In this document: positions 6,085 through 57,330 of the stretch, one piece after another
How positions within the stretch are numbered: the stretch's first letter is position 1
Layout: each line of letters opens with the position of its first letter
DNA from: Candidatus Kerfeldbacteria bacterium
GTDB taxonomy: Bacteria; Patescibacteriota; Patescibacteriia; UBA9570; XYC2-FULL-38-9
NCBI GenBank assembly: GCA_016182555.1
Contig: JACPGJ010000004.1
Location: 78,751-142,750 of the forward strand
Direction: 5' to 3'
DNA length: 64,000 nt
The notes under the pieces: model-generated
The model's database searches: none
The model's input: only the letters and a program-made list of their open reading frames with translations
What the model was told of the DNA's origin: nothing
Translations under genes and position numbers: made by a program

Positions 6085-6614
6085 AAAAGAAGAAATTTAA
6101 TTCCCATCAGTATCAACACTATTCCACCAAAAATTTCCGCTTTACTTTCTAACCATGTTCCACTCTGTTTTCCAATAAAAACACCACCCACACTAAAGAC
6201 AAAGGTAGTTGTTCCGATGACAAGACACGCGATATACGGATTGATTGCCAGTAACGTAAAACTGAAACCCGCAGCCATGGCATCAATGCTCGTAGCGATA
6301 GCAAGCATGAGCATGACTTTATTCGTCACATGCGAAATATCTTCTTCAATACCCTCTTGCAAACCTTCATAAAGCGTTTTTGTACCAATAAGAACCAATA
6401 AACCAAAAGCGACCCAGTGGGTATAGGCCTCTATCCAACCGAGAACACCCTTGCCGCCCAGATACCCAATGAGTGGCATAAAAGCTTGAAAAACACCAAA
6501 AAATACTCCTGCTTTGATTGCTTGATTTACTCCGTTTTTCTTGGCACCCAAACCAATAGATACAGCAAATGCATCCATGCTGAGCGCGATGGCGAGAATA
6601 ATAACTTCAAACAT
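6081..6614 (-). CDS. mntP: Manganese efflux pump MntP (DUF204 family)
   Basis: [11 protein letters not shown] at the N-terminus and the duplicated SIDAMAAG half. Length and TM pattern match MntP/YebN. Confidence 0.8.
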
Positions 6615-6700
6615 AGTGTTTTATGGTTTTTTTAAAAACCTCTGCAAAAATTATTCACGACTCATGATAGCCATTTTGATATTTCGTTATTCACCTCCAC

Positions 6701-7522
6701 TCAGGTAAAACTGATATTAACGCCCAAATCATTCAACAAGCTTAGACTAGCAGTTGCTGTTTTATTATGCAAATCTTTTTCCTCATGCCAAGCAGATACA
6801 GAAATAGCAACAATATTTCTGTTCGCCAATGATTCGAAAAGGGCTTTCATGTCTGAAAAACTTGGGCCGGATTTTACATGATATTTGAGAGCTGGCATTT
6901 CTTTTTCAGCATCAACGACGTCTGTATCCCAATGAAAATATATGCTTTCGTCTTGTCGTGGAAGATGTTTGGAGATATCCGCAATACGACATCGCGTTAC
7001 TTTTGAATTTTGCAACGCCTCCTTTTCTCCTGGGTCGAGATCTCGCCCATCAGCAAGAACGATTTGACCTTCGGGATAAGGTTTTAGCCCGGCCATCTCG
7101 ACGATTCGCTGGTCACCTCGTCCCACAAGCATCGCTAAAGGCATCCCACCGATATACTTTGTTTGTGTTGTTTCCCAAGTATGAAAATCGCCATGAGCAT
7201 CGAGCCAAAGTATTCGTTCTGGTTGTTTTCCAGCTTTTTGTAATCCAGCAAGTACACCGAGCGTCGAGACGCAATCTCCGGCGATACTTACCGGAATAAA
7301 ATCATCATTTACCATTTCTTTGATTTTTTCGGAAAGGAGGAAATATATTTTAGCCATTCTTTGAATCTTTTCGTCTGAGTTTGGAAGGATCACCTCTCTG
7401 CATTCAGGTACTTCCAGCACTTCCCAGGGGTTATAATCAATATCGCGAACACGGCAAAGCCCATCTCGCCACTGTCCCATTAAGAACGGTGTTATTATTT
7501 TTCGATACTTTTTCATAACCAT
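6701..7522 (-). CDS. Arginase/agmatinase/formiminoglutamase (ureohydrolase) family protein
   Basis: Motifs AGDCVS (GGDHS-like), LDAHGDFHTWETT (DAHxDxxT) and HWDTDVVD (SxDxDxxD) in the canonical order. Confidence 0.55.
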   Translation of the reverse strand: MVMKKYRKIITPFLMGQWRDGLCRVRDIDYNPWEVLEVPECREVILPNSDEKIQRMAKIYFLLSEKIKEMVNDDFIPVSIAGDCVSTLGVLAGLQKAGKQPERILWLDAHGDFHTWETTQTKYIGGMPLAMLVGRGDQRIVEMAGLKPYPEGQIVLADGRDLDPGEKEALQNSKVTRCRIADISKHLPRQDESIYFHWDTDVVDAEKEMPALKYHVKSGPSFSDMKALFESLANRNIVAISVSAWHEEKDLHNKTATASLSLLNDLGVNISFT

Positions 7523-9424: not shown

Positions 9425-10132
9425 TCATTCTTTCCCTAAATCGTACTTGCCAACTATCCTTCTTGATGCTGGATGACATACCGCATTGCACGTAATCACC
9501 TGTACTTTTTCGACTTTGAATTTCCCAATTTTTACATCTCTCATCTTTTGAACTTCGTTAATAAAAGCAATTTGAGGATTTTTGGCAAAACGACAAATTG
9601 TTATATTTCCCCAAAATACAGAAGTTGAAAAATATTTTTTATTATCCGGTACACCAATTTTTTGTAGTCCTTCATCCAAAGCGTAAACCAATTTTTGAAG
9701 TGTCTCGTCTGAATAACCCATGATGGACAAACTTGTTGGGAACATTAAAACATCCTCAACAGTAAATTCAAAAATGGGAAATTGCGGAATTATCTCGTTA
9801 AATAATTCATTGACTTTATTGATATCTGTTTCTGAAAATACAGGTGGTTTATTTATCGTTCTGATATTCTTAATTGTTACATGCATTGATTCTGGCAAGT
9901 AAAAATAATGATGGGGTTCTGTCTTTTTCAATTTTTCAATGACATCTGACATTATTTTTTGTGAAATATCATCGGGAATAAAAACTACCGAAGTCAAACA
10001 AATTTGATCGTCATGTACATAATCTTTTTGCATCTCAACAACAGTCGATTTATGAACTCTGTTCATAAAAGAATCCTCAAGCTGTTTTACCAATTTCTTT
10101 TGTTGTAAAAAATAATCGCTGTTTATATACAT
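9425..10132 (-). CDS. Hypothetical protein with one HxTx motif (HVTI), weakly reminiscent of 2H phosphoesterases
   Basis: Complete ORF. Only one clear H-x-T-x motif, so the assignment is tentative. Confidence 0.25.
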   Translation of the reverse strand: MYINSDYFLQQKKLVKQLEDSFMNRVHKSTVVEMQKDYVHDDQICLTSVVFIPDDISQKIMSDVIEKLKKTEPHHYFYLPESMHVTIKNIRTINKPPVFSETDINKVNELFNEIIPQFPIFEFTVEDVLMFPTSLSIMGYSDETLQKLVYALDEGLQKIGVPDNKKYFSTSVFWGNITICRFAKNPQIAFINEVQKMRDVKIGKFKVEKVQVITCNAVCHPASRRIVGKYDLGKE

Positions 10133-15904: not shown

Positions 15905-16013
15905 AAACTGGCAGCGACCTACTTTCACCCGAAAGCTATCATCGGCGCTAAAGAGCTTAACTGCTGTGTTCGGAATGGGAACAGGTGTGACCTCTTTGCT
16001 AGAACCACCAGAA
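15905..16013 (-). rRNA. rrf: 5S rRNA
   Basis: Reverse complement contains CCTGTTCCCATTCCGAACACAGCAGTTAAGC...GCCGATGATAGC...AGTAGGTCGCTGCCAG. Confidence 0.8.
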
Positions 16014-16564: not shown

Positions 16565-17331
16565 ATTCTGTTACTTTGCTAACCACATCAAGTACGGTGA
16601 GTGCGCGGTGGTGGATTGATGCGAATCAATCTCTGCATGTCGCCATGCAGTTCGGACTATATCTTTATCGCAGTTATTACTGCGACGTTTCGCGTATAGT
16701 CTCTGAGGATTCTACGATACGTATCAGATCTTGTTGCGCAACCTTTCTTCGCTTACCAGAGTCGTTCATCTGATACGCTGTTGTGATAATGCCTTTTGCA
16801 CCAACACCAGTTTGGTGTTTCCCTTCATTCATCATGTGCACTACTTTTGCAAAGAATTGAAAATCCTTAGCTTTCATAGTACGTAATGAATACTGTTGAA
16901 AGAATGGAATGATGCGTTTGAGCAAATCATCACGATTGCGGACAACATACACGTATGTATGATCTGTTTTGCTTCCACGATGGTTGACTTTGATATATCC
17001 GCATTGAAAAAATTGTTGCAATTCTTCCAATACGATTTTTGATGGGGAATTTTGTGATACATGAAATTCCGGTATCACTTTCAATTGTGTTTTCATCCGT
17101 TCATCTTTATACAAAGCGATATGAAAACTTCCTTCTCCATCTACCAAACCAACGATATACCATGGATGCGGTAATCGTAGCCTTTCCTGCTGGTTGTCTG
17201 CACTCAACACATTTTCACTTGCCATAATTGAATTATAGCAGAGTAGTGTGAGATTCACGAGTCCTCTATTTCTCCAATAGGACTCTTCAGAGTTTCCAGC
17301 ATATAGCGAAATTTATAGACAGCACAAATCT
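16565..17331 (-). mobile_element. Putative group I intron in 23S domain V (near E. coli L2593) carrying a homing endonuclease ORF
   Basis: The conserved exon block GATAGGGACCGAACTGTCTCACGACG is split by about 767 bp. The flanks rejoin into canonical 23S sequence. Confidence 0.7.
16677..17258 (-). CDS. LAGLIDADG homing endonuclease (intron-encoded)
   Basis: YIVGLVDGEGSFHI motif. The ORF lies wholly inside the intron on the rRNA strand. Confidence 0.8.
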   Translation of the reverse strand: MNLTLLCYNSIMASENVLSADNQQERLRLPHPWYIVGLVDGEGSFHIALYKDERMKTQLKVIPEFHVSQNSPSKIVLEELQQFFQCGYIKVNHRGSKTDHTYVYVVRNRDDLLKRIIPFFQQYSLRTMKAKDFQFFAKVVHMMNEGKHQTGVGAKGIITTAYQMNDSGKRRKVAQQDLIRIVESSETIRETSQ

Positions 17332-17375
<44 letters not shown>

Positions 17376-17953
17376 TGGCGAACAGCCAAACCCTTGGGAG
17401 CTGCTTCACCCCCAGGATGCGACGGGCCGACATCGAGGTGCCGAACCTGGTCGTCTATGTGAGCTATTGGACCAGACTAGCCTGTTATCCCCGGAGTAAC
17501 TTTTATCCGATGAGCTTCCGCCGTCCTATTTCGTACGGTCGGATCACTAAGTCCTACTTTCGTAACTGCGCGACTTGTAGGTCTTGCAGTAAAGCTGGCT
17601 TGTGCCTTTACACTATCGGTTCGATTTCCATCCGAACCTAGCCAACCTTTGTGAACGCCTCCGTTACCTTTTAGGAGGCATCCGCCCCAGACAAACTACC
17701 CACCAGACACTGTCCCCTCGCCGGATTCACGGCTAAAGGTTAGATATATCAATCCGTCAGGGTGGTATCTCACTGGTGACTCTGGAAGCGCCGAAGCGCC
17801 CCTTCAAAGTCTCCCACCTATACTGAGCAAACAAATTCATATACCAATCCCAAGTTGTAGTTAAGCTTCACGGGGTCTTTTCGTCATGCTGCGGGTAGCC
17901 AGCATCTTTACTGGCCCTGGAATTTCGCCGAGTCCCTCGTTGAGACAGTTTTC

Positions 17954-18006
<53 letters not shown>

Positions 18007-18007
18007 C

Positions 18008-18264
18008 AAATATTACATCACATTTTTAATAAAATGTCAATGTCTTCTTTCGAAGCTGCATATCGCTATGCAGATTGGACTATATCTTCTCTAAATAATT
18101 AGAGTTTGGCGTGTAGTCTCTGAGGATTCTTGCTTTCAATCAAGAAAACAAGTCTTTCCTGCTGATTGTCTGCACTCGACGCATTGTCACTGATATAAAT
18201 CAGTAGCGCGAGATACACAGATATTCCAGCATATAGCCAAATTTTACTAAGGCAGCATTTTTCC
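18008..18264 (-). mobile_element. Putative ORF-less group I intron at 23S L1931-like site
   Basis: Interrupts GGAATTTCGCT|ACCTTAGGAC. Shares conserved core elements with the other two introns (CTGCATATCGCTATGCAGxTxGGACTxTATCTTC and TAGTCTCTGAGGATT). Confidence 0.55.
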
Positions 18265-18274
18265 ACCTTAGGAC

Positions 18275-19039
18275 GATTCGTATTGTTACTCTTTTGAGGA
18301 GTCTCCGCATAGTACTACGGAACTGCATATCGCTATGCAGGTCGGACTCTATCTTCTTCGTTCTCTTCTTTATGAAGAGCGATGTCTAACGTATTAGTCT
18401 CTGAGGATTTTCTTGGCAGAACTGTTCATAGTCCTGTAATGCATATTTCCGTGTTCTTCCTTTCCCTTCATTTAGCTTTTCTCGTAATTCCATAATCTGC
18501 TGCAAACCATCACGCTCAAGATGTCTCTTATTCGTAACGAGTTGTGCAATTTGTTTGAAGATCATGAAATTTCGTTGTTTTTTCTGAGAACAAAAAGTAA
18601 ATCGTTCAAAAAAAGGAATGACCCTTTCCGTGATCGAACGCGGATTCACAACGACGTAATAATATACGCCGTCTTTTCTTGATTGAAGACGCCCACACCC
18701 GAGCAATTTTTTAAATTGCGCAAGAATGTATTCTTCCTTTTGAGAAACATTAAAACATAATTCTGTTTGCCAACCTATTTGATGATCTGGTCGTTTACGT
18801 ATGGATACGTTAAAACTTCCTTCACCATCAGTAAAGCCTGCAAAATAATGTCCCTTCTCTGGAGGAATGGTCTTCAACCATTCTTCTATTGTTGGTTGCA
18901 TATGTTCAAGAATCTTTCCTGCGGATTGTCTGCTGCTCTGGCATAGAGCTGATCATTGATTTTTACTGCCGTTTCAAACGACGAGTACAACGATATTAAG
19001 CAGAGTTTCCCGCAAATAGTTAGATTTTATAACTACAAT
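18275..19039 (-). mobile_element. Putative group I intron at 23S L1921/1923-like site (helix 69/71 junction) carrying a homing endonuclease ORF
   Basis: Splits GGAC|CGTTTTTATAGTTATCGCC (E. coli GGACCGTTATAGTTACGGCC). Separated from the previous intron by an approximately 10-nt exon. Confidence 0.65.
18386..18901 (-). CDS. LAGLIDADG homing endonuclease (intron-encoded)
   Basis: FAGFTDGEGSFNVSI motif. Contained within the intron. Confidence 0.8.
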   Translation of the reverse strand: MQPTIEEWLKTIPPEKGHYFAGFTDGEGSFNVSIRKRPDHQIGWQTELCFNVSQKEEYILAQFKKLLGCGRLQSRKDGVYYYVVVNPRSITERVIPFFERFTFCSQKKQRNFMIFKQIAQLVTNKRHLERDGLQQIMELREKLNEGKGRTRKYALQDYEQFCQENPQRLIR

Positions 19040-20489
19040 CGTTTTTATAGTTATCGCCGGCGTTCATCCGCGCTTCAGTTGCAAGCTTCGCCCCGAAGGG
19101 CTAACCCGCTTCCTTAACGTTCGGACACTGGCCAGGCATCAGCCCCTATACTTCAGCTTACGCTTTCGCAGGGACCTGTGTTTTTGGTAAACAGTCGCTT
19201 GAAATCTTTTACTGCGGCCTTGATTGCTCAAGGCAGGCCTTATCCCGAAGTTACGGCCGTTGTTTTGCCGAGTTCCTAAACGAGGGTTCTCTCGTACGCC
19301 TGAGGATACTCTCCTCGCCCACCTGTGTTGGTTTACGGTACGGTTACCATAGATCACGCGTGCGCACCTTTTCTTGGCCCATTGTCAACCTGTCTTGAGC
19401 TTGGGTTTCCCCGTACTCTTGTCACACTGTTTTGCAACAGCGCAAATGCCCCAGTCCATGAGGGCACACACACCTTCAACATGCGTCAGTACGCACAAAT
19501 CTATGGTAGGGACGGAATATTAACCGTCTGTCCATCGACTACGCCTTTCGGCCTCGCCTTAGGACCGCCTAACCCTAGGTCGATCATCGTTGCCCAGGAA
19601 TCCTTGGGCTTACGGCGTCATTGATTCTCACAATGATTTTTGCTACTCATGCCGACATTTTCGCTTCGCTACGCTCCATCGGCCCTCACGGGTCCAACTT
19701 CATTGCGGTAGCAAATGCTCCTCTACCGATTGTTCATCATAAATGATGAAGCAATCCCACAGCTTCGGTACTCTGTTTAGCCCCGTTACATTTTCGGCGC
19801 AAAGTAACTCGACCAGTGAGCTATTACGCTTTCTTTAAAAGATGGCTGCTTCTAAGCCAACTTCCTGGTTGTTTGAGTCACGATACCACCTTTAACACTT
19901 AACAGAGTTTAGGGACCTTAGCTGGTGATCTGGGCTGTTTCCCTTTTGACGTGTGAAGCTTAGCCCCCACAGTCTGACTTCGATAATAGTCTCTTCCGGC
20001 ATTCGGAGTTTGGTTAGGCAGGATATCTTGCGACTCCAAGCCCATTCAGTGCTCTACCTCCGGAAGGTAGTTTATCAAGCTATCCCAAAAGATATTTCGA
20101 GGAGAACCAGCTATTTCCGAGTTCGATTACAATTTCTGCGCTAACCACAGCTCATCCCCAGGCGTTACACGACCTGTGGGTTCGGGCTTCCCCTACCTGT
20201 TACGGCAGGTTCACCCTGGCCATGGCTAGATCACTCGGTTTCGGGTCTATAACGAACGACAATAATTCTACTCAATACTGGTTTGCGGCAAAGCCGCACC
20301 CAGTATTAAATAGAAAATCGCGCTATTCACACTCGGTTTCCCTATGACTTCTCCCTATGCGGGATTAATCGTGCCGTTCGTAATAACTCGTCGGCTCATT
20401 CTTCAATAGGCACACCGTGACACAGCCTTGCGGCCGTGCTCCGATTTATTGTAAGCACATGGTTTCAAATACTATTTCACTCCCCTTCC

Positions 20490-20532
<43 letters not shown>

Positions 20533-21343
20533 ATCATTATACGTATTTAGCCTTACCGCATAGTCGCGGCAGATTCACATAGGATTTCTCGTGTCCCATG
20601 CTACTTGAGGACAGAAACCATAGAGTAAGTGTGCATTTCATGTACGGGGCTATCACCGTCTTTGGCTAGGCATTCCAGCCTATTCTATTACACACACTTC
20701 TTTTTTCTCTATCTCCGGTAAACCGGAACGTCTCTGCCTCGCAACCCCACAAATGATTTAAAAAATTACTCATGGTTTGGGCTTCTCCCCGTTCGTTCGC
20801 CACTACTAAGGGAATGCAATTGTTGTTTCTTTTCCACCAGGTACTAAGATGTTTCAGTTCCCTGGGTCTACTCCTATACGCCTATGTATTCAGCGCATGG
20901 TTCTGCAGGTGTACTGCAGAGGGTTGCCCCATTCGGATATTCCCGGATCAAAGCTTGCTTGTCAGCTCCCCGAGACTTTTCGCAGACTGCTACGTCCTTC
21001 ATCGTCGTATAATGTCAAGGTATCCACCATATGCTCTTACTTCCCGACGCAAAGTTGATACTCTTGCGTCTAATCATTGTAGTTGTATCAGTATCTTCGC
21101 ACAATTTGGATTCGACGAAATTTTGATGTTGTCCTCTATGCGCAGGATGGGGCATAGAGAACGTCTGTATCTTCTATATATATGGCGCATGGCGTTAATA
21201 TGCCCATATATCAATTGATGTCTTTGAGAATATTCACTTGTCAATGAACAGGTGTGCTGAAACGGTGACTAATACAGTATTTTCAGCACAGATCTACCGC
21301 TCGTTGTTTGCGTGGAGGCAGGTCTGCGATGAAAATGGGGCAC

Positions 21344-41694: not shown

Positions 41695-43719
41695 ATGAAC
41701 CTATCAGAAAAACTCATACAACTCGGTTTTACGAAAAACCAAGCCGCTGTCTACTCTTCTCTCATTGAGCTGGGTCAATGCAAGGCTAGCGAAATTATTA
41801 AAAAGACTGGCCTGCATAGAAATATTGTGTACGAAGCGCTCGATGAACTGGTACTGAAACGACTCGCTTTCAAAACGAGTAAGGGCGGCGTCGCACTGTT
41901 TCAACTTTCAGATGCAAACACACTGGTAAATGATGCTCAATCGCAATTAACAACAGCAAAAGATATTGCACAAGAGATCAACCACTTACGAAAAAAATCA
42001 ACTCATGAGATAAAACTCTATGAGGGAATGAATGGGCTCAAATCACATCGTGAAAGAGTGTTAGAAGATTTAAAAAATATCAATTCATCAGAAAAAGAAT
42101 TATTAATGCTCGGAACGACGCCAAAAGTATCTGGTGAGCCGTATGAATCCTTTTGGAAAAAATATCATGAACATCGTGCGAAAGAAGGAGTATCAGCGCG
42201 CATGCTATTTCCCGTAGAAAGTAAAAAACAAGCAGAAGCCCGCGCACAAATTCCCCTAACACAAACGAAATTGCTCCCTCAAGAAATGAAAAATCCAATC
42301 ATGATTGATGTTTGGAAAGATAATGCCGCATTTATGTTATTTGACGCTGATCCATTTATTATTTCTGTAAAAAACGCGCATCTTGCACAATCATTTCGAG
42401 AATATTTTGAAACACTGTGGCAACAAGACGCTACCGTGTATCGCGGAGTAGAGGGAATGAAAATAATTATGGAAGAATCGTTGAAGTATTCTGACAATTG
42501 GTTTATTGGTGGGAATGGAGGCATTGACCGTGTCATGCCAGAATATTGGGAAGAGTATAACAAACGCAGAATTGCAAAAAAAGTATGGTGGCACGATTTA
42601 GTAGATGTTGGATCACATTTACGTGGAGTTCAAGTATTACCGCCCGGGGTAAAAGATGAAGAACGATATATCGAATTTAAATATTTACCTGAGGAAGTGG
42701 GCTCAATATCAGTTATTTTTATTTATGGGAACTTTGTTGCAAATATTATTTGGGACGCCAAGCCAGAGCCCATTGCATTTGTGGTTGAAAATACAGATGT
42801 GGTAGAATCGTACAAAAAATATTTTAATTATCTGTGGAATCAGGATACGTTTGTCGTTACGGGTTTACCCGCCGTACAAGAACTATTTTATCGAAAAATG
42901 CGAGAACTAAAAGCAGGAGAAGAATATGTTGTGTTAGGAGCAAATTATGGTGTGGAAAGTAAGCAAGTACTGACGCAGTGGTTTATTGAATATCATGCGG
43001 AACGTAGCGCTCGAAAGATAAAAGTAAAATTATTAGGATTTGAAAATGACCAACAAAGATTAATGGAAGAAATTATTCAAGGCGGCGATCCGAAATTCGT
43101 TCATACAGAATTACGATTTTTGTCTGATGATTTTACTTCTCCTATGCAAATTAATATCTACCCAGATTCCATCATGATGGTGTACTGGGGGCTAGGTGAA
43201 AAAGCGGTTGCCGTTGAAATTCAACGAAAAGACATACAAAAATCAATGATGGCGTATTTTACCGGATTATGGAATCAAGATACGCATATCATCACCGGAC
43301 GAGAAAATGTGGAAAAATTACTACACAGAAAATTAGACGAAATGCATCCAGGAGAAAGGCATTATTGTTATGGTGGTCAATATGGAGAAAAAAATCCAGA
43401 ATATTTCTTTCGTTTTTGGAGTGATTTTAATGCAAAACGAAATGCAAAAGGAAATACAGTACAGTTAATTGGATTCGAGCATATTCGTAAAAACCTCTTG
43501 AAAGAAGTACAGGTTGGTGACACAGAAATGAAAAATGCTGAAGTTCGTTTTCTTGATCAAGAGCTACTCACTCCGACGCTAACAATGATCTACCCAAACA
43601 GCGCAGTAATTATTTTATGGGATTACGATGAAGCAATGGCCATTGAAACAACACGAGAATCAGCAAGAAAAATGCTCCTCAATCACTTTCAATCGTTGTG
43701 GAAAATTGCTAAACAGTAA
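41695..43719 (+). CDS. TrmB-family HTH regulator followed by four tandem approximately 145-aa C-domain repeats
   Basis: N-terminus LGFTKNQAAVYSSLIELGQCKASEI. Each repeat ends F..LWxQD(A/T) (FETLWQQDA, FNYLWNQDT, FTGLWNQDT, FQSLWKIA). Confidence 0.5.
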   Translation: MNLSEKLIQLGFTKNQAAVYSSLIELGQCKASEIIKKTGLHRNIVYEALDELVLKRLAFKTSKGGVALFQLSDANTLVNDAQSQLTTAKDIAQEINHLRKKSTHEIKLYEGMNGLKSHRERVLEDLKNINSSEKELLMLGTTPKVSGEPYESFWKKYHEHRAKEGVSARMLFPVESKKQAEARAQIPLTQTKLLPQEMKNPIMIDVWKDNAAFMLFDADPFIISVKNAHLAQSFREYFETLWQQDATVYRGVEGMKIIMEESLKYSDNWFIGGNGGIDRVMPEYWEEYNKRRIAKKVWWHDLVDVGSHLRGVQVLPPGVKDEERYIEFKYLPEEVGSISVIFIYGNFVANIIWDAKPEPIAFVVENTDVVESYKKYFNYLWNQDTFVVTGLPAVQELFYRKMRELKAGEEYVVLGANYGVESKQVLTQWFIEYHAERSARKIKVKLLGFENDQQRLMEEIIQGGDPKFVHTELRFLSDDFTSPMQINIYPDSIMMVYWGLGEKAVAVEIQRKDIQKSMMAYFTGLWNQDTHIITGRENVEKLLHRKLDEMHPGERHYCYGGQYGEKNPEYFFRFWSDFNAKRNAKGNTVQLIGFEHIRKNLLKEVQVGDTEMKNAEVRFLDQELLTPTLTMIYPNSAVIILWDYDEAMAIETTRESARKMLLNHFQSLWKIAKQ

Positions 43720-46172: not shown

Positions 46173-48194
46173 CTATCGTTTCTTCTTACGCGTGCTTTTC
46201 TTTTTTCCAAACAATCCGCTTGGGCGCTCTTTCTCTAATTGCTCAATTTGGTCACGCAACGTTGCCGCTTTTTCAAATTCCAAATTCTGCGCGGCCAACT
46301 GCATTTGTGCATACAAATCTTTCAACAAGTGCTCGTACTCTTCTTCGTGTAAATTTTTTGCGGCGTCCATTGCGGGGAATCCGACCGGTTCTTCTTCTTT
46401 TTTGCCGCCCAAACGATCATCACGAATGCGTTTTAAAATAGTTTGTGGCGTGATTCCGTGTTTTGTATTATACGCTAACTGAATCGCACGGCGGCGATTG
46501 ACTTCATCTATTGCACGCTGCATAGAACCAGTAATGGTGTCTGCGTACATAATCACGGTACCATCAATGTGCCGTGCAGCACGACCCATCGTTTGAATCA
46601 GTGAAGTGTCAGAACGCAAGAATCCTTCTTTGTCGGCATCAATAATGGCAACCAAAGACACCTCCGGCAAATCCAACCCCTCGCGCAACAAGTTAATACC
46701 CACCAACACATCATACGTTCCTAAGCGCAAGTCGCGTAAAATTTCGAGACGCTCTAACGTGTCCACTTCCGAATGTAAGTACTGCACTGCAACTCCTTTT
46801 TCGTTCAAAAAATCAGCCAGCTCTTCGGCCATGCGTTTTGTGAGTGTCGTCACCAATACGCGTTGCTTTTGATCCGTGCGTTTCACAATCTCTTCCAACA
46901 AATTCGGAATTTGTCCGCGGGTGGGGCGAATATCAATATGCGGTTCTGTAATACCGGTCGGACGAATAATTTGTTCCGCAATCACTTTTGCGCGTTCTTT
47001 TTCATAGGGCCCGGGAGTCGCGGAAATATAAATCGTCTGCCCCATGCGTTGCTCAAATTCTGAAAATTGTAACGGCCGATTATCAAACGCCGCTTGCATA
47101 CGAAATCCGTGTTGCACCAACATCTCTTTGCGAGAACGATCTCCGGCATACATGCCACGAATCTGCGGAACAGACTGATGAGATTCATCTATAAGCAGTA
47201 AATAGTCTTTTGGGAAATAATCAAATAGCGTAAATGGTGTTTCACCGGGGGTTCGCCCATCAAAATAACGCGAATAATTTTCAATACCATTCACAAACCC
47301 CACATTTTGAATCATCTCCAAATCGTATTTTACGCGTTGCTCTAAACGATGCGCTTCAAATTCTTTTCCCGCGGCTTTGAACGCCGCCACTTCTTTTTCC
47401 AAATCCATGCGCATCTGTTGCAACGCTTGTTCAAAGTGCACAGTTTGCGCCTGATACAATGTTGCTGGGTAAATATCTACCTCATCAAATTCATTGATCA
47501 CTTCTCCGGTGAGCGTGTCTACTTCTTGAATACGCTCCAGTGTTTCACCAAAAAAATCAAACCGGTGCGCGGTGTGTTCCGCCGATTTTTGAAACACCTC
47601 CACAATATCGCCACGTACACGAAATGTGCCACGGAAAAAATCGATATCGTTTCGTTGATAATTCATCTCTACCAACTTAATCAACATTTGTCGACGGTTC
47701 ACGCCGTTCTCTTTGCTCACATGAAAACTGGCGCGTTTATATTCTTGTGGTGAACCTAAACCGTAAATACACGAAACCGATGCAACAATAATCGTATCAC
47801 GGCGAGAGAGCACGCTTTGCACTGCCGCATGACGCAAACGGTCGATCTCTTCATTTAACTGCGTTTCTTTTTCTATGTACGTGTCAGATTTAGCAATGTA
47901 TGCTTCGGGTTGATAATAGTCGTAGTAGGAAACAAAATATTGCACGGCGTTGTGCGGAAAAAATTCACGAAACTCTGAAGCGAGTTGCGCGGCGAGTGTT
48001 TTGTTATGCGAAATGACGAGTGTCGGGCGTTGAAGTTTTTGAATCACTTGTGATGCTGTGTACGTTTTCCCGCTGCCCGTTACACCCAATAAAATCGAAT
48101 TCCGTTCACCTTTTTCCACAGCCGAAACCAGTGTTTTTATCGCTTCTGGCTGGTCTCCACTGGGTTTGAAAGGAGCTTCCAATTGAAATTTCAT
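46173..48194 (-). CDS. uvrB: Excinuclease ABC subunit B
   Basis: GVTGSGKT Walker A, helicase motifs, and a C-terminal UvrB/UvrC-interaction (UVR) coiled coil. Confidence 0.95.
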   Translation of the reverse strand: MKFQLEAPFKPSGDQPEAIKTLVSAVEKGERNSILLGVTGSGKTYTASQVIQKLQRPTLVISHNKTLAAQLASEFREFFPHNAVQYFVSYYDYYQPEAYIAKSDTYIEKETQLNEEIDRLRHAAVQSVLSRRDTIIVASVSCIYGLGSPQEYKRASFHVSKENGVNRRQMLIKLVEMNYQRNDIDFFRGTFRVRGDIVEVFQKSAEHTAHRFDFFGETLERIQEVDTLTGEVINEFDEVDIYPATLYQAQTVHFEQALQQMRMDLEKEVAAFKAAGKEFEAHRLEQRVKYDLEMIQNVGFVNGIENYSRYFDGRTPGETPFTLFDYFPKDYLLLIDESHQSVPQIRGMYAGDRSRKEMLVQHGFRMQAAFDNRPLQFSEFEQRMGQTIYISATPGPYEKERAKVIAEQIIRPTGITEPHIDIRPTRGQIPNLLEEIVKRTDQKQRVLVTTLTKRMAEELADFLNEKGVAVQYLHSEVDTLERLEILRDLRLGTYDVLVGINLLREGLDLPEVSLVAIIDADKEGFLRSDTSLIQTMGRAARHIDGTVIMYADTITGSMQRAIDEVNRRRAIQLAYNTKHGITPQTILKRIRDDRLGGKKEEEPVGFPAMDAAKNLHEEEYEHLLKDLYAQMQLAAQNLEFEKAATLRDQIEQLEKERPSGLFGKKKSTRKKKR

Positions 48195-48305
48195 AGGTGC
48201 TTGTACTATAATCGACTTTCACCCTTTTGCCAAAAATTCTTGGAACAGCTTGTTTCTTGACTGTTTACAGTTGACAGTAAACTGTAAACAGTCTATACTA
48301 AGTAT

Positions 48306-49292
48306 ATGAAAAATAGTATAGATGAAAAAATAATTGCTTATATTAGCCAAAAAAATCAAGCTTCTCCGATAGAGCTGGTGGGTTATTTGAGTATTTCTCG
48401 ACAAACCGTAGCTAAAAAGCTAAAAAAACTTATCGAACAGGGAAAGCTATCAAAAACCGGGGCTCCACCAAAAGTATTTTATTCTCTCGCCTCTCCAAAA
48501 GAGCTCACGGCGAACAAGGTAGTCACGGTTCTCGCGCCAGATATTGCTCGCATTATTAACGAACGCTATTTGTATACATCACCCGCTGGAGAAATGAAAG
48601 AGGGTGTTGCGGGGTTCAACTATTGGTGCAACAAAACCGGGCAGCCGGTAAAAAAAACAGCTCAAGAATATATTCACACACTCGCCAAATATGATGCATA
48701 TAAAAAACATGGGTATATCAACGGCATGAAAAAATTCCGCAGTACATTTACAGAAATATTTCTGGATGAAATTTTCTATCTTGATTTTTATAGCATCGAG
48801 CGTTTTGGAAAAACCCGTTTGGGTCAACTACTTCTCTATGCAAAACAAGGACAGAACCGGCGATTGATGAACCAATTGGTGAATGACATACGCCCACACG
48901 TTGAATATCTGATTGCAGAATACCGTATTGATGCCATCGGATTTATTCCACCAACCGTGAAGCGCGAAGTGCAGCTTATGCATGAATTGAAACGGCGCTT
49001 GGCAGTACCACAACGTAACATTGCTCTTACAAAAGTGACTAGCGATGTTGCGGTGCCACAAAAAACACTTTCCAAATTAGAAGATCGTATTGAAAATGCG
49101 AATAAAACAATTCTACTCACAGAAAAACAACCGGAAAAAAATATTTTACTTATCGATGATGCCGTTGGTTCTGGCGCTACACTCAATGAAGTCGCTCAAA
49201 AACTACGCACACAAAATTTGTGTACCGGAAAAATTATTGGCCTCGCCATTACCGGCAGCTTCAAAAGATTTGATGTAGTTAGCGAAGTATAG
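48306..49292 (+). CDS. wHTH domain fused to a type I phosphoribosyltransferase domain
   Basis: N-terminus LVGYLSISRQTVAKKLKKL. C-terminal PRPP-binding loop ILLIDDAVGSGATLNEV. Confidence 0.5.
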   Translation: MKNSIDEKIIAYISQKNQASPIELVGYLSISRQTVAKKLKKLIEQGKLSKTGAPPKVFYSLASPKELTANKVVTVLAPDIARIINERYLYTSPAGEMKEGVAGFNYWCNKTGQPVKKTAQEYIHTLAKYDAYKKHGYINGMKKFRSTFTEIFLDEIFYLDFYSIERFGKTRLGQLLLYAKQGQNRRLMNQLVNDIRPHVEYLIAEYRIDAIGFIPPTVKREVQLMHELKRRLAVPQRNIALTKVTSDVAVPQKTLSKLEDRIENANKTILLTEKQPEKNILLIDDAVGSGATLNEVAQKLRTQNLCTGKIIGLAITGSFKRFDVVSEV

Positions 49293-49313
49293 ACTATTCA
49301 TCCGATCATCACT

Positions 49314-49892
49314 ATGAAACAGTTTGACCCACATCGCTATCACATCATCGGCATGAGTCCGGGAAACAGTTACTTCAAAGATGAAGAGGTACATTATTTG
49401 CTCAAAAGTATCGTTGATCGTTTCGGCAGAGTCGCTATTCTGATTGCTGATATTCCTGCAGTCTCTACATGTGTCGCTTTAGGGTACCCAGAAAACCGAG
49501 CACGGCGTGACAAAGCTTTGCCAAAAGGAAATGCGTTAAAAAACCGGGTTCGCAAAACGATTGCGGGTGTTGATTTTCCGCACAACCGTCAAGTCTACGT
49601 TCCGCAACTCTCTGACAATATGGAAACGCTGCGCTTTGTTGCTGACGGACGTGCGGATTTTACATTTGTTGAACCATTTCTTGCTGAATATTTTAATACT
49701 TGTTCTCATCTGAAGGTCACGTCGTGTTCAACAACGCCGATTCGAATGTATGAGAATACGTTTATGCTTAAACGAAACGAGCAGCGATTGAAAGAGTTGC
49801 TTGATAGGGAAATTCAGTCTATCAAACAGAGTGGTTTTCTGAAAAAATTGATCAAAAAATATACCAAATCAGAGGATACGTTTGTGTTTTAA
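49314..49892 (+). CDS. Cyclodipeptide synthase (CDPS)-like protein, short form
   Basis: YHIIGMSPGNSYFKDEEV matches the CDPS catalytic-Ser motif (compare AlbC/YvmC GISxxNSxFS). Following FGRVAILIAD and KGNALKNRVRK blocks parallel AlbC. About 45 aa shorter than characterised CDPSs. Confidence 0.45.
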   Translation: MKQFDPHRYHIIGMSPGNSYFKDEEVHYLLKSIVDRFGRVAILIADIPAVSTCVALGYPENRARRDKALPKGNALKNRVRKTIAGVDFPHNRQVYVPQLSDNMETLRFVADGRADFTFVEPFLAEYFNTCSHLKVTSCSTTPIRMYENTFMLKRNEQRLKELLDREIQSIKQSGFLKKLIKKYTKSEDTFVF

Positions 49893-49924
49893 TCCGTGCT
49901 GGAAATTTCAGCCGCTCTATTCTG

Positions 49925-50293
49925 ATGCAAACAAAATTACTGCGTACATTGAGTGTAAATAAACAAGGGGCCGCACTTATTCGAAAAGCAAAAAAGATTT
50001 TTATTGATAACACCACATTGTTGTATGCAATCAACGGTGAGCTAGGAAAGCAGACAAATGTCGGAACACAGCGGGAATTGTTTGTGCTCAATCAGTTACA
50101 GAATGCGGGATACGTGCCCACCCATAGTACCAGCGGGGATATAATAGTAAATAAAATAGTTCTAGCGGTTGGAGGAAAAAATAAAGATCGATCTCAAATC
50201 GCTCACACCAATCATGCATATCTTGTTCTCGATGATATACTCATTGGAGATAAATACACTATTCCCTTGTACTTGTTCGGATTTCTGTATTAG
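49925..50293 (+). CDS. Hypothetical protein
   Basis: Complete ORF downstream of the CDPS-like gene. No recognisable motifs. Confidence 0.3.
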   Translation: MQTKLLRTLSVNKQGAALIRKAKKIFIDNTTLLYAINGELGKQTNVGTQRELFVLNQLQNAGYVPTHSTSGDIIVNKIVLAVGGKNKDRSQIAHTNHAYLVLDDILIGDKYTIPLYLFGFLY

Positions 50294-51048
50294 GATTTCA
50301 TGCTCACGTTCCAGAGAAAATCGAAAATGTGGCGGAAGGAGAAAGCGAGGTCTGGGGAATAGATAATAAATGCGGCGGATTCTTTTTTGGTGGAGATCAC
50401 AGCGATATTATTTTCGTAGATGTATATGGAAGATTTTAAATCCACATACGCTGGCAAATAGCGAATTTGTCGTAAATATTTTTCTTCTTCCATAAATATT
50501 GCTTCACCGCGCACGTCACGGCCCTTCACGCGGAGGGACTTTGATTGAATGCCTTTTTTCACACGCCGGGCTACCCAAGTTTTCATGTACGCCTTGTCCA
50601 CCATCGAATAGGTAAGGTTCTGGGGAGATAAATAACAATATTCTTTTTTGGTCACCGCTAAAATATCTTCAAACACTTCGCGAGCTGCATGAGTACCCGT
50701 GAACATTTGCACAAACGGTTGCTTCCCTTCTTCGGCATAGAGTGCTAAAAAATCAGGCAATAGGTCTTTCAACTGTTGCTTCTGTTGATCGAATTTTTTA
50801 TACAGTTCTTTGGGGTGCAGCGGTACAAATATTTTCCGCTTTCCTTCGTGCAGCGTATGCATATAGCCACGCTGTTCCAATACACGTAAATTGTCATATA
50901 CCGCAGTACGCCCCAACCCAACTGTATCCGCAATCTCTTTTGCCGTTGCTTCACCCAGCGACAATGTAGCCAAATAGACCTGCGCCCGCTGTTCATCCAA
51001 CCCTGTTGTTATAAGCCATTGGAGTAATTGTGTATTCATATTTTTCAA
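50290..51048 (-). CDS. TrmB-family HTH regulator with a single C-domain (paralogue of the 41695 gene)
   Basis: N-terminus RAQVYLATLSLGEATAKEIADTVG. C-terminus FDFLWNVS. Confidence 0.5.
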   Translation of the reverse strand: MKNMNTQLLQWLITTGLDEQRAQVYLATLSLGEATAKEIADTVGLGRTAVYDNLRVLEQRGYMHTLHEGKRKIFVPLHPKELYKKFDQQKQQLKDLLPDFLALYAEEGKQPFVQMFTGTHAAREVFEDILAVTKKEYCYLSPQNLTYSMVDKAYMKTWVARRVKKGIQSKSLRVKGRDVRGEAIFMEEEKYLRQIRYLPAYVDLKSSIYIYENNIAVISTKKESAAFIIYSPDLAFSFRHIFDFLWNVSMKS

Positions 51049-52054: not shown

Positions 52055-52885
52055 TCACGCCGTTTTCTTTTTTATCACAAACGCCGTTCCGTACTTACCC
52101 CTATTACCAATATCTATTTCTATAGGGGCACCTGTTGGCAACTCTTTTTTCATGTGTTGAATTTTTCCAAAATCTCGAGCATGCACCGCTGCAACATACA
52201 GCTCTCCACCCGGAAGCAACTTTGCAATTGCCGCACGAAGAACATCTGAAAAATAAGGCAAATTCGTGGCATAAATATCTCCTTGACCTGAATACAAAAA
52301 TTCTCCGTTGGTGTCAATAATTAAATCAAACTCCTCAAAATCTCTCATTTCTAAAATACTGCGAAGTTTTCTATCGTTCGGATGAATCGTGTCATTTAAT
52401 TGTTCTGTGCTTCCTGGGGGTAGTGATAATTCTTTTTTACAAACCGCGTTAACAATCGCTCGTTTCTGCTTTGTCGCCACTTCAGGCTGAACGAGGTTTT
52501 CAATAGACGTGCCAAACACCACAACATCCTTACCAAATTTTTTTCTTATCTGGTCAGTAAAAAATCCAAAACCGCAACCCATATCCAGAATTCTCACTGG
52601 TCGATGGTCATTTTCCTGACGAACCCGTTCAATGATGCGTGGAATAATATCTTCCATAAAATTGACGCCATGCTCGGCGTTGATTCCAATAGATTCTCCA
52701 TCTTGATTCAAAGAAATGATTCCCTCAGCTAAACGACAACGCTCAACGCGTCTATTGGTGATTCTTTCTGCGTAATGTGCTCGTACCGCCGGATTCCATT
52801 TTTCTGTGGCAAGGTTCTTCCACCCTGGCCACGGTTTTTTTGCAAAGGGCTCTCCTCCACGACCACGAATTCTATTTTTTGGCAT
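52055..52885 (-). CDS. Class I SAM-dependent methyltransferase
   Basis: Motif I ILDMGCGFGFF. Confidence 0.55.
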   Translation of the reverse strand: MPKNRIRGRGGEPFAKKPWPGWKNLATEKWNPAVRAHYAERITNRRVERCRLAEGIISLNQDGESIGINAEHGVNFMEDIIPRIIERVRQENDHRPVRILDMGCGFGFFTDQIRKKFGKDVVVFGTSIENLVQPEVATKQKRAIVNAVCKKELSLPPGSTEQLNDTIHPNDRKLRSILEMRDFEEFDLIIDTNGEFLYSGQGDIYATNLPYFSDVLRAAIAKLLPGGELYVAAVHARDFGKIQHMKKELPTGAPIEIDIGNRGKYGTAFVIKKKTA

Positions 52886-56052: not shown

Positions 56053-57330
56053 TTATTTTCTTAGCGTAATAAATTTGCGTTTACCGACTTGAACCGTGTC
56101 GCCATCTGCAAATGCAAGTGCCGTGTGCGCATCGTTCACTTTCTTTCCATTCAACTTCACGCCACCTTGTTCAATCAACCGCCGTGTTTCTGCTTTTGAA
56201 ACCGCCAACCCCGCACGCACAATCACATCCACTATGCTCACATCTTCCACAGCAAGATGGTACACTGGAATATCTGTTGGTGCGCCTTTTTGTTGAAACA
56301 CCTGAATAAATTCTTTTTCTGCCGCGTTTGCCGCTTCCACAGAATGATATAACGCAATAATTTTGCGCGCTAAACACATTTTCAAATCGCGCGGATTCTC
56401 TCCCTTACTCAATGCATGCTTCACGCCTTGCACATCTTGTACTGAAGAATTTGTACAGAGCCAAAAATACTCCGGTATCAATTCATCTTTCAAAGACATC
56501 ACCTTTCCAAACATATCATTTGGTGAATCATCCACGCCAATCACATTTCCAAAACTTTTACTCATTTTGCGACCATCCAACCCGGGTAATAATTCAAACG
56601 TCACCACCACCTTTTCTTTCTTGTTCATCATTTGCTGCAGGCTACGGCCAGTGAGCATATTAAACAACTGGTCATTCCCACCAAATTCTGCGTCCACATC
56701 CATCGCGACCGAATCATACCCTTGCATAATTGGATACAAAAATTCATGCACATGGATCGGTTTCCCTTCTTGCATCCGTTTTTCAAACATGTCGCGCTCC
56801 AACATTTGCTGAACCGTGAAACGCGCAGACAATTCAATGACATCCGAAAAACGTAACTTGTCTAGCCATTTCGCATTAAATTCTAAACGTGCGGGGTTTG
56901 ACGCGCTATCAGAAAAATCTAAAATCTTTGCGGCCTGTTCTTTATAGGTCGCCGCATTGGCGAGCACCTCTTCATGCGTCAGGGTCGTCCGCGCTGCAGA
57001 ACGATCGGTAGGATCACCAATACGTGCAGTAAAATCGCCAATCAACAAAATAATTTCATGCCCCAAATCTTGCAACTGACGCATTTTTCGTAAAATAACG
57101 GCATGACCAATATGAATAACCGGACCAGTAGGATCTACCCCTAAATACAAACGCATCCGTTCACCGGTTTGTAACTTTTTGGTAAAAATATCCTTTGGGA
57201 TAATACCTGCAACACCGCGAGTCAGTAAATCTTCCAACATCATTGGGTCGTCTACTTTCTGTGCTTGATTTTTTACTTGTTTTTCTGGCATAATAAGCAT
57301 ATTGTAACATAAAATAGACAACTCAGCCAC
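56053..57330 (-). CDS. tyrS: Tyrosyl-tRNA synthetase
   Basis: HIGH (VIHIGHAV) and KMSKS motifs, C-terminal S4 domain. Start may be M14 (57291). Confidence 0.9.
   Translation of the reverse strand: MAELSILCYNMLIMPEKQVKNQAQKVDDPMMLEDLLTRGVAGIIPKDIFTKKLQTGERMRLYLGVDPTGPVIHIGHAVILRKMRQLQDLGHEIILLIGDFTARIGDPTDRSAARTTLTHEEVLANAATYKEQAAKILDFSDSASNPARLEFNAKWLDKLRFSDVIELSARFTVQQMLERDMFEKRMQEGKPIHVHEFLYPIMQGYDSVAMDVDAEFGGNDQLFNMLTGRSLQQMMNKKEKVVVTFELLPGLDGRKMSKSFGNVIGVDDSPNDMFGKVMSLKDELIPEYFWLCTNSSVQDVQGVKHALSKGENPRDLKMCLARKIIALYHSVEAANAAEKEFIQVFQQKGAPTDIPVYHLAVEDVSIVDVIVRAGLAVSKAETRRLIEQGGVKLNGKKVNDAHTALAFADGDTVQVGKRKFITLRK

Follow-up and report, generated by a model that had tools for sequence, protein, structure and literature searches.

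What is encoded by a 192-aa open reading frame (ORF) that the public record annotates as 'tRNA-dependent cyclodipeptide synthase', in a metagenome-assembled genome (MAG) of Candidatus Kerfeldbacteria (CPR), where it lies immediately behind a gene that joins a winged HTH to a phosphoribosyltransferase-like domain (HTH-PRT)? A preliminary description of this DNA had proposed a minimal or divergent cyclodipeptide synthase (CDPS), or a new aminoacyl-tRNA-using enzyme, associated with the HTH-PRT gene. The analysis of the whole 64-kb stretch (the window) leads us to a different answer: the ORF is very probably an in-frame internal-deletion remnant of a gene that fused a CDPS to an SBP_bac_3 domain (the CDPS-SBP fusion), pseudogene-like and unrelated to its neighbour. 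Both ORFs were found where they had been reported (Table 1), and their close adjacency was confirmed, although the spacer measures 21 nt and not 22 nt.

Table 1. Positions in the window of the two adjoining ORFs, their parts and the intervening sequences
Feature	Position	Strand	Description or basis
Two sigma-70-like promoter matches	48183-48212 and 48271-48299	+	11/12 consensus each, upstream of the HTH-PRT gene; consensus matches only, with a total count not above the shuffled expectation
HTH-PRT gene, 328 aa	48306..49292	+	ORF list; winged-HTH, conserved middle region and type-I phosphoribosyltransferase-like domain
Intergenic spacer, 21 nt	49293..49313	+	actattcatccgatcatcact
Chimeric ORF, 192 aa	49314..49892	+	Very probably derived from a CDPS-SBP_bac_3 fusion gene by an internal deletion that kept the frame
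Residues 1-82, N-terminal NYH-type CDPS fragment	49314..49559	+	beta1, helix, beta2 and start of a long basic helix
Deletion junction, codon 82 (ACG, Thr)/codon 83 (ATT, Ile)	49557..49562	+	DNA comparison with L008/P0121
Residues 83-192, last ~110 residues of an SBP_bac_3 (type II periplasmic-binding-fold) domain	49560..49889	+	Pfam, tblastn and PDB match

The CDPS annotation reflects a significant profile match, in agreement with the first reading of the sequence. The 192-aa protein scores 55.9 bits with the Pfam CDPS model PF16715 (cut-off 27) and 59.2 bits with TIGR04539 (cut-off 45), and the motif GMSPGNSYF is present at residues 13-21, Ser15 (codon AGT at 49356-49358) being aligned with the nucleophile S37 of AlbC and N18 with N40 of AlbC. 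The PF16715 match is restricted to profile positions 20-111 of 220, and residues 1-82 correspond to the N-terminal 40% of an NYH-type CDPS. The blocks downstream of the motif had also been considered to parallel AlbC and YvmC, but the similarity to CDPSs ends at about residue 82-100, and from there on the protein resembles the C-terminal portion of SBP_bac_3 proteins. This second similarity was detected with PF00497 at positions 97-131 of 132 (E 1.5e-3; 18.7 bits, under the gathering score of 26.4) and by a PDB sequence match to residues 162-241 of YtmK (E 1.4e-5).

According to a tblastn comparison of a full-length fusion with the whole 64-kb window, there are exactly two matches, which are collinear and both in frame +3: fusion residues 6-78 match 49338-49556 and fusion residues 355-469 match 49539-49883 (53% identity), and the middle of the fusion has no match anywhere in the window. 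In a 479-column alignment with intact fusions the 192-aa protein occupies columns 1-82 and 365-474, and the 282 columns in between (83-364) are absent. They comprise about 125 of the roughly 207 residues of the CDPS domain and some 155 residues from the linker and the SBP domain, a far larger loss than the 45 or so residues initially thought to be lacking. The family-invariant motifs HYLLSEF (H156-Y157-L-L-S-E161) and YxYHKNW (Y179-x-Y181-H182-x-N-W) fall within the deleted columns. Also absent is the first SBP half, which holds the invariant arginine of 'WPTPER' (family R316). Active CDPSs are defined by four conserved catalytic residues (Ser, Tyr, Glu, Tyr) together with the N40/Y202/H203 signature (PMC7613923). 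The catalytic Tyr, Glu and Tyr-His are gone from the 192-aa protein, and the only CDPS active-site residues left are the Ser and Asn of GMSPGNSYF.

At the junction the ancestral gene has lost about 282 codons (~846 nt), and the join is clean and in frame, with a microhomology of at most 2-3 nt. In L008/P0121 the left flank reads NRVKKT followed by MHELGY and the right flank NDITDS followed by IAGVDFPKNR, while the peptide across the junction of the 192-aa ORF is ...NRVRKTIAGVDFPH.... An exhaustive HMMER search among 1.84 billion representatives returned no other protein with this junction. All of the two-piece matches from that search were 444-500 aa long, with the exception of P0390 (124 aa), an independent in-frame chimera of an N-terminal CDPS and a C-terminal SBP part whose junction differs. 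P0365, which is also 192 aa long, was considered as a second protein spanning the junction and discarded, as inspection showed it to be the SBP fragment of a broken fusion with a spurious cross-junction alignment.

The organism might nevertheless possess an intact fusion of roughly 470 aa, the deletion being a mis-join or a minority variant fixed in the consensus. Such an artefact would fit the metagenomic origin of the assembly, and the broken copies found in other assemblies (L001 and L078) could partly be sequencing errors. However, an independent Logan assembly of SRR12113422 has the locus without a single base difference, the reading frame continues exactly across the join, and repeat collapse is not expected because the junction microhomology, of 3 nt at most, is far below any assembler k-mer. 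We consider this explanation very unlikely.

The structure models agree with the sequence comparisons. The AF2 model of the 192-aa protein (pLDDT 73, pTM 0.40) has two strands only, with an active-site loop below 50, and when it was compared to YvmC or AlbC using Foldseek just 58-60 columns were aligned with a TM of ~0.22. In the preliminary description a superposition on AlbC had been put forward as a check: the catalytic Ser does align, but the CDPS fold is not formed, with two of its five strands present, and the lack of this fold in a model had been named there as a result that would refute the proposal. On the contrary, the model of the intact fusion P0124 shows the five CDPS strands and a complete SBP domain, the latter with a TM of 0.82-0.89 to amino-acid-binding proteins. 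In this intact model, neither of the fragments retained in the 192-aa protein forms a folding unit by itself.

P0124 comes from another Kerfeldbacteria genome and belongs to a family of intact CDPS-SBP fusions with at least 120 proteins (436-500 aa, with PF16715 and PF00497), 118 of which were used for the alignment and conservation comparison, a number that is a lower bound on the family. The fusion is present in about 43 species-level genomes and occurs widely across CPR, Melainabacteria and Bdellovibrionota-like MAGs. Its layout consists of an NYH-type CDPS domain, a linker of roughly 20 residues and a cytoplasmic SBP_bac_3 domain that has neither a signal peptide nor a transporter context. 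The intact SBP domain has retained the Arg of 'TPER' and, where the Asp that binds the alpha-ammonium group would stand, an acidic residue. Both are putative ligand contacts, at the clamp positions for the alpha-carboxylate and the alpha-ammonium group, and a gating of the synthase by amino acids is conceivable for the family. ORF clustering over the 43 fusion loci gave no gene family present in more than six of them, and conserved tailoring or partner genes were not found. CDPSs with a C-terminal 'ABC transporter domain' were listed, uncharacterised, by Gondry et al. 2018 (PMC5816076, main text and supplementary file 7), including OGY85379.1 from Candidatus Kerfeldbacteria RIFOXYA2_FULL_38_24, which is P0124, and OGI43181.1 from Moranbacteria. 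Beyond that work, we found nothing in the literature on CDPS-SBP fusions or on CDPSs in Kerfeldbacteria.

Further decayed copies of the fusion exist: a frameshifted one (L001), a split one (L078) and a 39-aa stub (L077). Several long matches break at GYGVIADGL, an apparent shared 'frameshift hotspot', and the break in L001 is a real frame change at the DNA level. The in-frame TGA of the L002 fusion was considered as a nonsense mutation or a read-through site, and both were rejected, as this genome reads TGA as sense (code 25).

Taken as a remnant, the 192-aa ORF would derive from a single gene of ~470 aa with an N-terminal NYH-type CDPS, a flexible linker of roughly 20 residues and a C-terminal cytoplasmic SBP_bac_3 domain. 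Illegitimate recombination or slippage, the mechanisms that we favour, would have removed ~846 bp (fusion residues ~83-364), and the reading frame would have survived by chance. The leftover ORF would then contain beta1-alpha-beta2 and a portion of the helix that follows; this piece includes the nucleophile Ser and the NYH Asn and is fused to the last ~110 residues of the SBP domain. With three of the five strands, half of the SBP domain and the Tyr, Glu and Tyr-His residues gone, the remnant should be able neither to fold as either domain nor to make a cyclodipeptide, and the cyclodipeptide-making activity has presumably been lost. The 192-aa ORF is most likely a dead gene.

The retained halves are conserved. 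There is a single deviation at 55 columns that are conserved at 90% or more, Cys53 (TGT, 49470-49472) in place of a Tyr that is present in 118 of 118 intact relatives (Y53C), and the ratio of C-terminal to N-terminal identity is 0.693, compared to 0.679 +- 0.046 in intact members. The test for relaxed selection on both halves thus gave no excess divergence, a result that does not separate a recent deletion from a chimera still under selection. Because the retained pieces show no extra divergence the deletion is probably recent in evolutionary terms; equally, halves as conserved as those of intact relatives make a continuing purifying selection on the chimera possible. The second independent in-frame chimera (P0390) also counts against the remnant reading, as does the extent of the survey of the organism's own genome, which covered 64 kb.

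The frame has been kept and the ORF starts 21 nt behind a gene that looks expressed, so translation of the 192-aa ORF may well occur. It is nonetheless very doubtful that the chimera is translated and partly functional as a decoy or regulator acting on aminoacyl-tRNA or a small ligand, with chimeras like P0390 being selected and, separately, with the parent family being an amino-acid-gated CDPS. The more specific proposal of a neo-functionalised small protein, expressed with the HTH-PRT gene and having partial activity (aminoacyl-tRNA binding through the region of the basic helix, or a role as regulator or decoy), would account for the preserved frame, the lack of excess divergence, the tight spacing and the existence of P0390. 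It is highly improbable, however, as neither fragment is a folding unit by itself and the remnant model is of low confidence, no orthologue with the same junction exists among the representatives searched, and a Tyr that is 100% invariant has already been lost (Y53C). Moreover, a random deletion keeps the frame in one case out of three. A functional minimal or divergent CDPS, or another aminoacyl-tRNA-using enzyme, can scarcely be maintained in spite of the significant HMM match, the GMSPGNSYF motif with its nucleophile Ser and the good conservation of the residues kept, given that the match is confined to profile positions 20-111 of 220, the deletion has taken three of the five strands along with the catalytic Tyr, Glu and Tyr-His motifs, the fold is not formed in the model, the C-terminal half comes from a different domain of which it is a fragment, and the architecture is a singleton among the 1.84 billion representatives. 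The remnant reading is the one that we retain.

We have also analysed whether the upstream gene is related to the CDPS sequence. The preliminary description had presented it as a fusion of a winged HTH to a PRPP-binding domain: the HTH (residues 3-51; Pfam HTH_DeoR/HTH_24) and the PRPP-type loop, ILLIDDAVGSGATL, are indeed there, whereas the assignment to Pribosyltran (PF00156; residues 224-313, E 1e-5) is borderline, with 25.2 bits just under the gathering score of 26.3. Within the loop, D284, D285, A286, G288, S289, G290 and T292 are invariant in the HTH-PRT family (18 members compared). There are 3972 homologues at E<=1e-5, of about 325 aa and 53-61% identical over their full length, distributed CPR-wide. 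Like PurR-type and ComF-type phosphoribosyltransferase-domain proteins, the HTH-PRT protein combines a winged HTH with a putative type-I PRT domain and an intact PRPP loop, an architecture that we take to be reminiscent of B. subtilis PurR; unlike them, it has a conserved middle region of ~170 residues without a Pfam match. Profile searches gave weak ComF and GntX matches, and identity with ComF was rejected, the score with TIGR00201 (25 bits) being far under the cut-off of 233. A PDB sequence search with this protein returned nothing at E<=1.

Homologues of the HTH-PRT gene were found by tblastn within +-10 kb in none of 76 CDPS-bearing loci, in L003 the Kerfeldbacteria fusion has an unrelated gene upstream, and the genes located 3' of HTH-PRT homologues elsewhere are unrelated too. 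On these results a functional link between HTH-PRT and CDPS was rejected, and an aminoacyl-tRNA enzyme acting together with HTH-PRT is not supported. Judging from its homologues, HTH-PRT is an independent, conserved CPR-wide family that adjoins the remnant only by accident of gene order. Both genes are probably co-transcribed. The 21-nt spacer between them contains no sigma-70-like match, nor is a Shine-Dalgarno sequence obvious there by eye.

The other window neighbours of the remnant are housekeeping or unknown genes together with one methyltransferase-like ORF below threshold, and P450, CDO or 2OG oxygenase genes were not found among those scanned, in line with the initial observation that P450 and CDO tailoring genes are absent. 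Neither Pfam nor NCBIfam gives a family for the downstream orf122 (49925-50293), and no homologue of it was found in the window or at any of the loci. Orthology of the window to the intact Kerfeldbacteria locus L003/L011 was considered and rejected: the TrmB and AAA_14/DUF4143 genes match at 27-28% identity, which indicates paralogues and a locus that is not orthologous.

The result is mainly an annotation correction, as the ORF encodes 40% of a CDPS welded to a fragment of another domain, and genome-mining tools keyed on the CDPS HMM could count such a remnant as a CDPS cluster. It also provides a clean, datable case of a gene decaying through an in-frame deletion in a CPR bacterium with a reduced genome. 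Of more use is a by-product of the analysis, the parent family, a CDPS with a cytoplasmic amino-acid-binding-protein domain and no conserved partner genes. The question of why cyclodipeptides are made by ultra-small symbionts is better approached from an intact member, P0124 for example, than from the remnant. Should the chimera be functional, recurrent in-frame N-CDPS/C-SBP chimeras (the remnant and P0390) would represent a selected outcome.

Finally, the 192-aa protein can be compared to known systems. A close counterpart is P0124 (OGY85379.1), from the same candidate phylum, with which it is 69% identical over the aligned residues, collinear at both ends and alike in its NYH-type N-terminus and SBP C-terminus; it differs in length (192 vs ~470 aa) and in the 282 internal residues that contained the catalytic motifs, the linker and the first SBP half. 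With the solved structures of the NYH subfamily (AlbC, YvmC, Rv2275 and BtCDPS) it shares GxSxxNS, with the Ser and the Asn, and a first beta-alpha-beta unit that superposes, but the superposition is limited to ~60 residues, and the ORF has no coding sequence for what remains of the Rossmann-like fold or for the other conserved catalytic residues. The stretch from residue 104 to 184 can be aligned to the last third of SBP_bac_3 proteins, AncCDT-1 and cyclohexadienyl dehydratase (5t0w, 5jos, 9e2b, 1xt8, and YtmK 2o1m), although, unlike in amino-acid-binding SBP_bac_3 proteins, only the C-terminal part exists and there is no two-lobed fold. One CDPS from CPR has been biochemically characterised, ParcuCDPS of Parcubacteria bacterium RAAC4_OD1_1, which makes cyclo(His-Pro) (PMC7613923), and CDPS genes are therefore not unexpected in this group. 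ParcuCDPS and the 192-aa ORF are both CDPS sequences from CPR, but the former is a complete stand-alone enzyme of the XYP subfamily, whereas the gene in the window is a fragment of an NYH-type fusion.

Both ORFs of the preliminary description were recovered at the positions it had given, separated by a 21-nt spacer with no obvious ribosome-binding site upstream of the 192-aa ORF. NCBI holds both exact proteins, from a metagenome-assembled 'Candidatus Kerfeldbacteria bacterium', under the names 'tRNA-dependent cyclodipeptide synthase' (192 aa) and 'DeoR family transcriptional regulator' (328 aa). The match of the 192-aa protein to cyclodipeptide synthases (CDPSs) is significant in both Pfam (PF16715, 55.9 bits) and NCBIfam (TIGR04539, 59.2 bits), and in both cases it is confined to residues 10-103, which cover profile positions 20-111 of 220. 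The end of SBP_bac_3 solute-binding proteins is matched by residues 113-185 (PF00497, E 1.5e-3), with further matches to the EhuB and cystine-binding protein models. A PDB sequence search aligned residues 104-184 with YtmK and Lmo2349, in each case with the last third (E 1e-5), and residues 7-66 with YvmC. According to these matches, the 'downstream blocks' that had been read as CDPS-like belong to another domain, SBP_bac_3. In the alignment with AlbC, S15 corresponds to AlbC S37 and N18 to N40.

The first homology search returned one class of ~207-aa proteins aligned to the N-terminal 40-50% of the query alone, another of SBP_bac_3 proteins aligned to its C-terminal 60%, and some longer proteins in which a CDPS leads directly into an SBP domain. 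One such CDPS-SBP protein, at locus L002 of a genome that reads TGA as sense, is a single frame of 473 aa when translated accordingly; code 25 also makes other genes of this locus whole, with the TPP-enzyme, aldehyde dehydrogenase, PheT and the fusion each forming one ORF. Used as a query, this translation retrieved at least 120 intact proteins (436-500 aa), which all have PF16715 and PF00497 and come from Uhrbacteria, Kerfeldbacteria, Nomurabacteria, Parcubacteria and others. Furthermore, a scan of species-representative genomes contained ~43 full-length fusions, mostly in CPR bacteria, together with ~22 CDPSs of ~207 aa that stand alone; the fusion-bearing MAGs with non-CPR labels were Obscuribacterales/Melainabacteria, Bdellovibrionota, Alpha- and Gammaproteobacteria and Bryobacterales. 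Neighbour clustering revealed no recurrent partner gene around the 43 intact fusions.

The AlphaFold model of P0124, the fusion from Kerfeldbacteria RIFOXYA2_FULL_38_24 (pLDDT 85), has a CDPS domain with five strands (8-14, 40-44, 93-96, 176-181 and 204-208), a disordered linker (212-228) and a binding domain with both lobes complete (234-466), which superposes on amino-acid-binding proteins (AncCDT-1, a Trp-binding SBP and CjaA) with TM 0.82-0.89. The family is of the NYH type, and its invariant H156-Y157-L-L-S-E161 and Y179-x-Y181-H182-x-N-W motifs lie opposite the EYVIAE and LAYHRPW segments in the YvmC alignment. CDPSs have conserved catalytic Tyr, Glu and Tyr plus Tyr-His signature residues (PMC7613923), and from this alignment we take the two motifs to hold them. 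The C-terminal domain keeps the 'TPER' Arg and has E402 at the position of the alpha-ammonium-binding Asp of amino-acid-binding proteins; these retained residues make it plausible that the intact fusion would be a cytoplasmic amino-acid (or product) sensor joined to a synthase.

When the full fusion was compared with the entire 64 kb by tblastn, only two matches were obtained, both in frame +3: fusion residues 6-78 at 49338-49556 (62% identity) and residues 355-469 at 49539-49883 (53% identity), with no counterpart of residues 79-354 anywhere in the window. In the multiple alignment of 479 columns, the window protein likewise occupies columns 1-82 and 365-474, 282 columns being missing. In the DNA, the breakpoint falls between codons 82 (ACG) and 83 (ATT); relative to P0121, another fusion protein, the left side stops at 'NRVKKT/MHELGY' and the right side restarts at 'NDITDS/IAGVDFPKNR' (slashes mark the breakpoints), with a junction microhomology of at most 2-3 nt. 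From the CDPS domain, the deletion has taken three of five strands and the motifs with Tyr, Glu and Tyr-His; the linker is gone as well, and so is the first half of the binding domain, where the invariant 'WPTPER' arginine lies. The AlphaFold model of the remnant (38-sequence alignment; pLDDT 73, pTM 0.40) has only two strands, and its active-site loop, residues 17-21, has pLDDT below 50. Foldseek aligned it to CDPS structures over a fragment of only 58-60 residues (TM ~0.22, E 0.02). The serine is aligned, but the CDPS fold that the preliminary description had asked for is not formed in the model. Overall, that description is confirmed in part: its proposal of a minimal or divergent CDPS or a novel aminoacyl-tRNA-using enzyme holds for homology, whereas the proposed function is unsupported.

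The retained halves are not decayed: among 55 columns with at least 90% conservation across the family, the window protein departs at one (Y53C, where 118 of 118 intact relatives have Tyr), and the divergence of one half relative to the other, 0.693, is within the usual range for intact members (0.679 +- 0.046). Judged from the sequence, this fits a recent deletion; formally, continued selection on the chimera would also be compatible with it. That neither fragment is a folding unit argues against a selected function, as does decay elsewhere in the family, at L001, L078 and L077 (see the table) and in P0390, an independent 124-aa in-frame chimera with a different junction that joins CDPS residues ~1-26 to the last ~98 SBP residues. 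Moreover, when 1.84 billion representatives were searched exhaustively with HMMER, no second protein with the same junction came up. For these reasons the 192-aa ORF is very probably a pseudogene-like remnant. An assembly artefact is unlikely as the source of the junction, because the locus is base-identical in an independent Logan assembly of run SRR12113422 and any repeat at the junction is too short to have misled an assembler.

In the upstream 328-aa protein, a winged HTH (residues 3-51) precedes a conserved middle region with no Pfam match and a type-I phosphoribosyltransferase (PRT)-like domain; no PDB relative was found by sequence. Its family is very large, CPR-wide and strongly conserved (3972 matches, the best 120 at 53-61% identity over almost the full length; mean column identity of 67% across 18 members), with an invariant PRPP loop and invariant middle-domain motifs. 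Its adjacency to the CDPS-like gene, which had been given prominence, is coincidental: none of 76 CDPS loci has a homologue within 10 kb, and in other genomes (L080-L083) different, unrelated genes follow after 21-30 nt. Two copies (A2233_03005 and A2233_03465) are present in Kerfeldbacteria RIFOXYA2_FULL_38_24, with locus tags distant from A2233_04950, the CDPS fusion of that genome.

Other neighbours in the window encode UvrB, S20, HolA, a cytidylyltransferase-like protein, a PIN toxin, TrmB-type regulators, an AAA_14/DUF4143 ATPase and TyrRS. One of the two TrmB-type HTH proteins near the remnant is unusually long (674 aa), with a known-domain match in its N-terminal 58 residues only. No Pfam or NCBIfam family matched the 122-aa ORF that begins 32 nt past the remnant (spacer 49893-49924), nor was a homologue of it found in the window or any fetched locus. 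A 276-aa methyltransferase-like ORF carries a class-I SAM-type glycine motif (ILDMGCGFGFF) with a sub-threshold Pfam match (Methyltransf_23, 19 bits), and no homologue of it was found near other CDPS loci. TyrRS lies ~6 kb from the remnant, and at L001 (1-5910) ArgRS, IleRS and a class-Ib aaRS gene stand beside the fusion; this proximity may be fortuitous or reflect a loose connection with the supply of aminoacyl-tRNA, and did not recur in neighbour clustering. Group I introns are common in the rRNA genes of CPR bacteria, and one (RF00028, 76 bits) interrupts the 23S rRNA gene of the window, whose length (3754 nt vs 2925 nt in the model) suggests further insertions or an intron ORF.

Features of the window and of fusion loci elsewhere
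Feature	Position	Strand	Remark
5S rRNA	15906-16012	-	
23S rRNA	17297-21050	-	
Group I intron	18056-18297		within 23S rRNA gene
TrmB-type HTH protein	41695-43719	+	
HTH-PRT gene	48306-49292	+	ORF, 328 aa
CDPS-like remnant	49314-49892	+	ORF, 192 aa
122-aa ORF	49925-50293	+	
TrmB-type HTH protein	50290-51048	-	
Methyltransferase-like ORF	52055-52885	-	
TyrRS gene	56053-57330	-	
L001	6001-7426		frameshift near 'GYGVIADGL'
L002 (Logan SRR30246832)	5995-7497		CDPS-SBP fusion
L077 (Sungiibacteriota)	9971-10090		39-aa N-terminal stub
L078	5001-6585		fusion copy split over two frames, ~130 extra nt
L011-L051, L076	e.g. L011 5019-6455		intact CDPS-SBP_bac_3 fusions, ~470 aa

Finally, CDPSs of CPR bacteria were already known, ParcuCDPS having been characterised (PMC7613923), and the supplementary table of Gondry et al. 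(2018; PMC5816076) lists a Moranbacteria protein and Kerfeldbacteria OGY85379.1, which comes from the same genome as P0124 and is evidently the same protein. Our literature search found no later study of CDPS-SBP fusions. What is most useful here is that the annotation can be corrected and that attention is drawn to the intact CDPS-SBP family as a worthwhile object of study, the window gene being a degraded member of a fusion family that has been catalogued yet unstudied.
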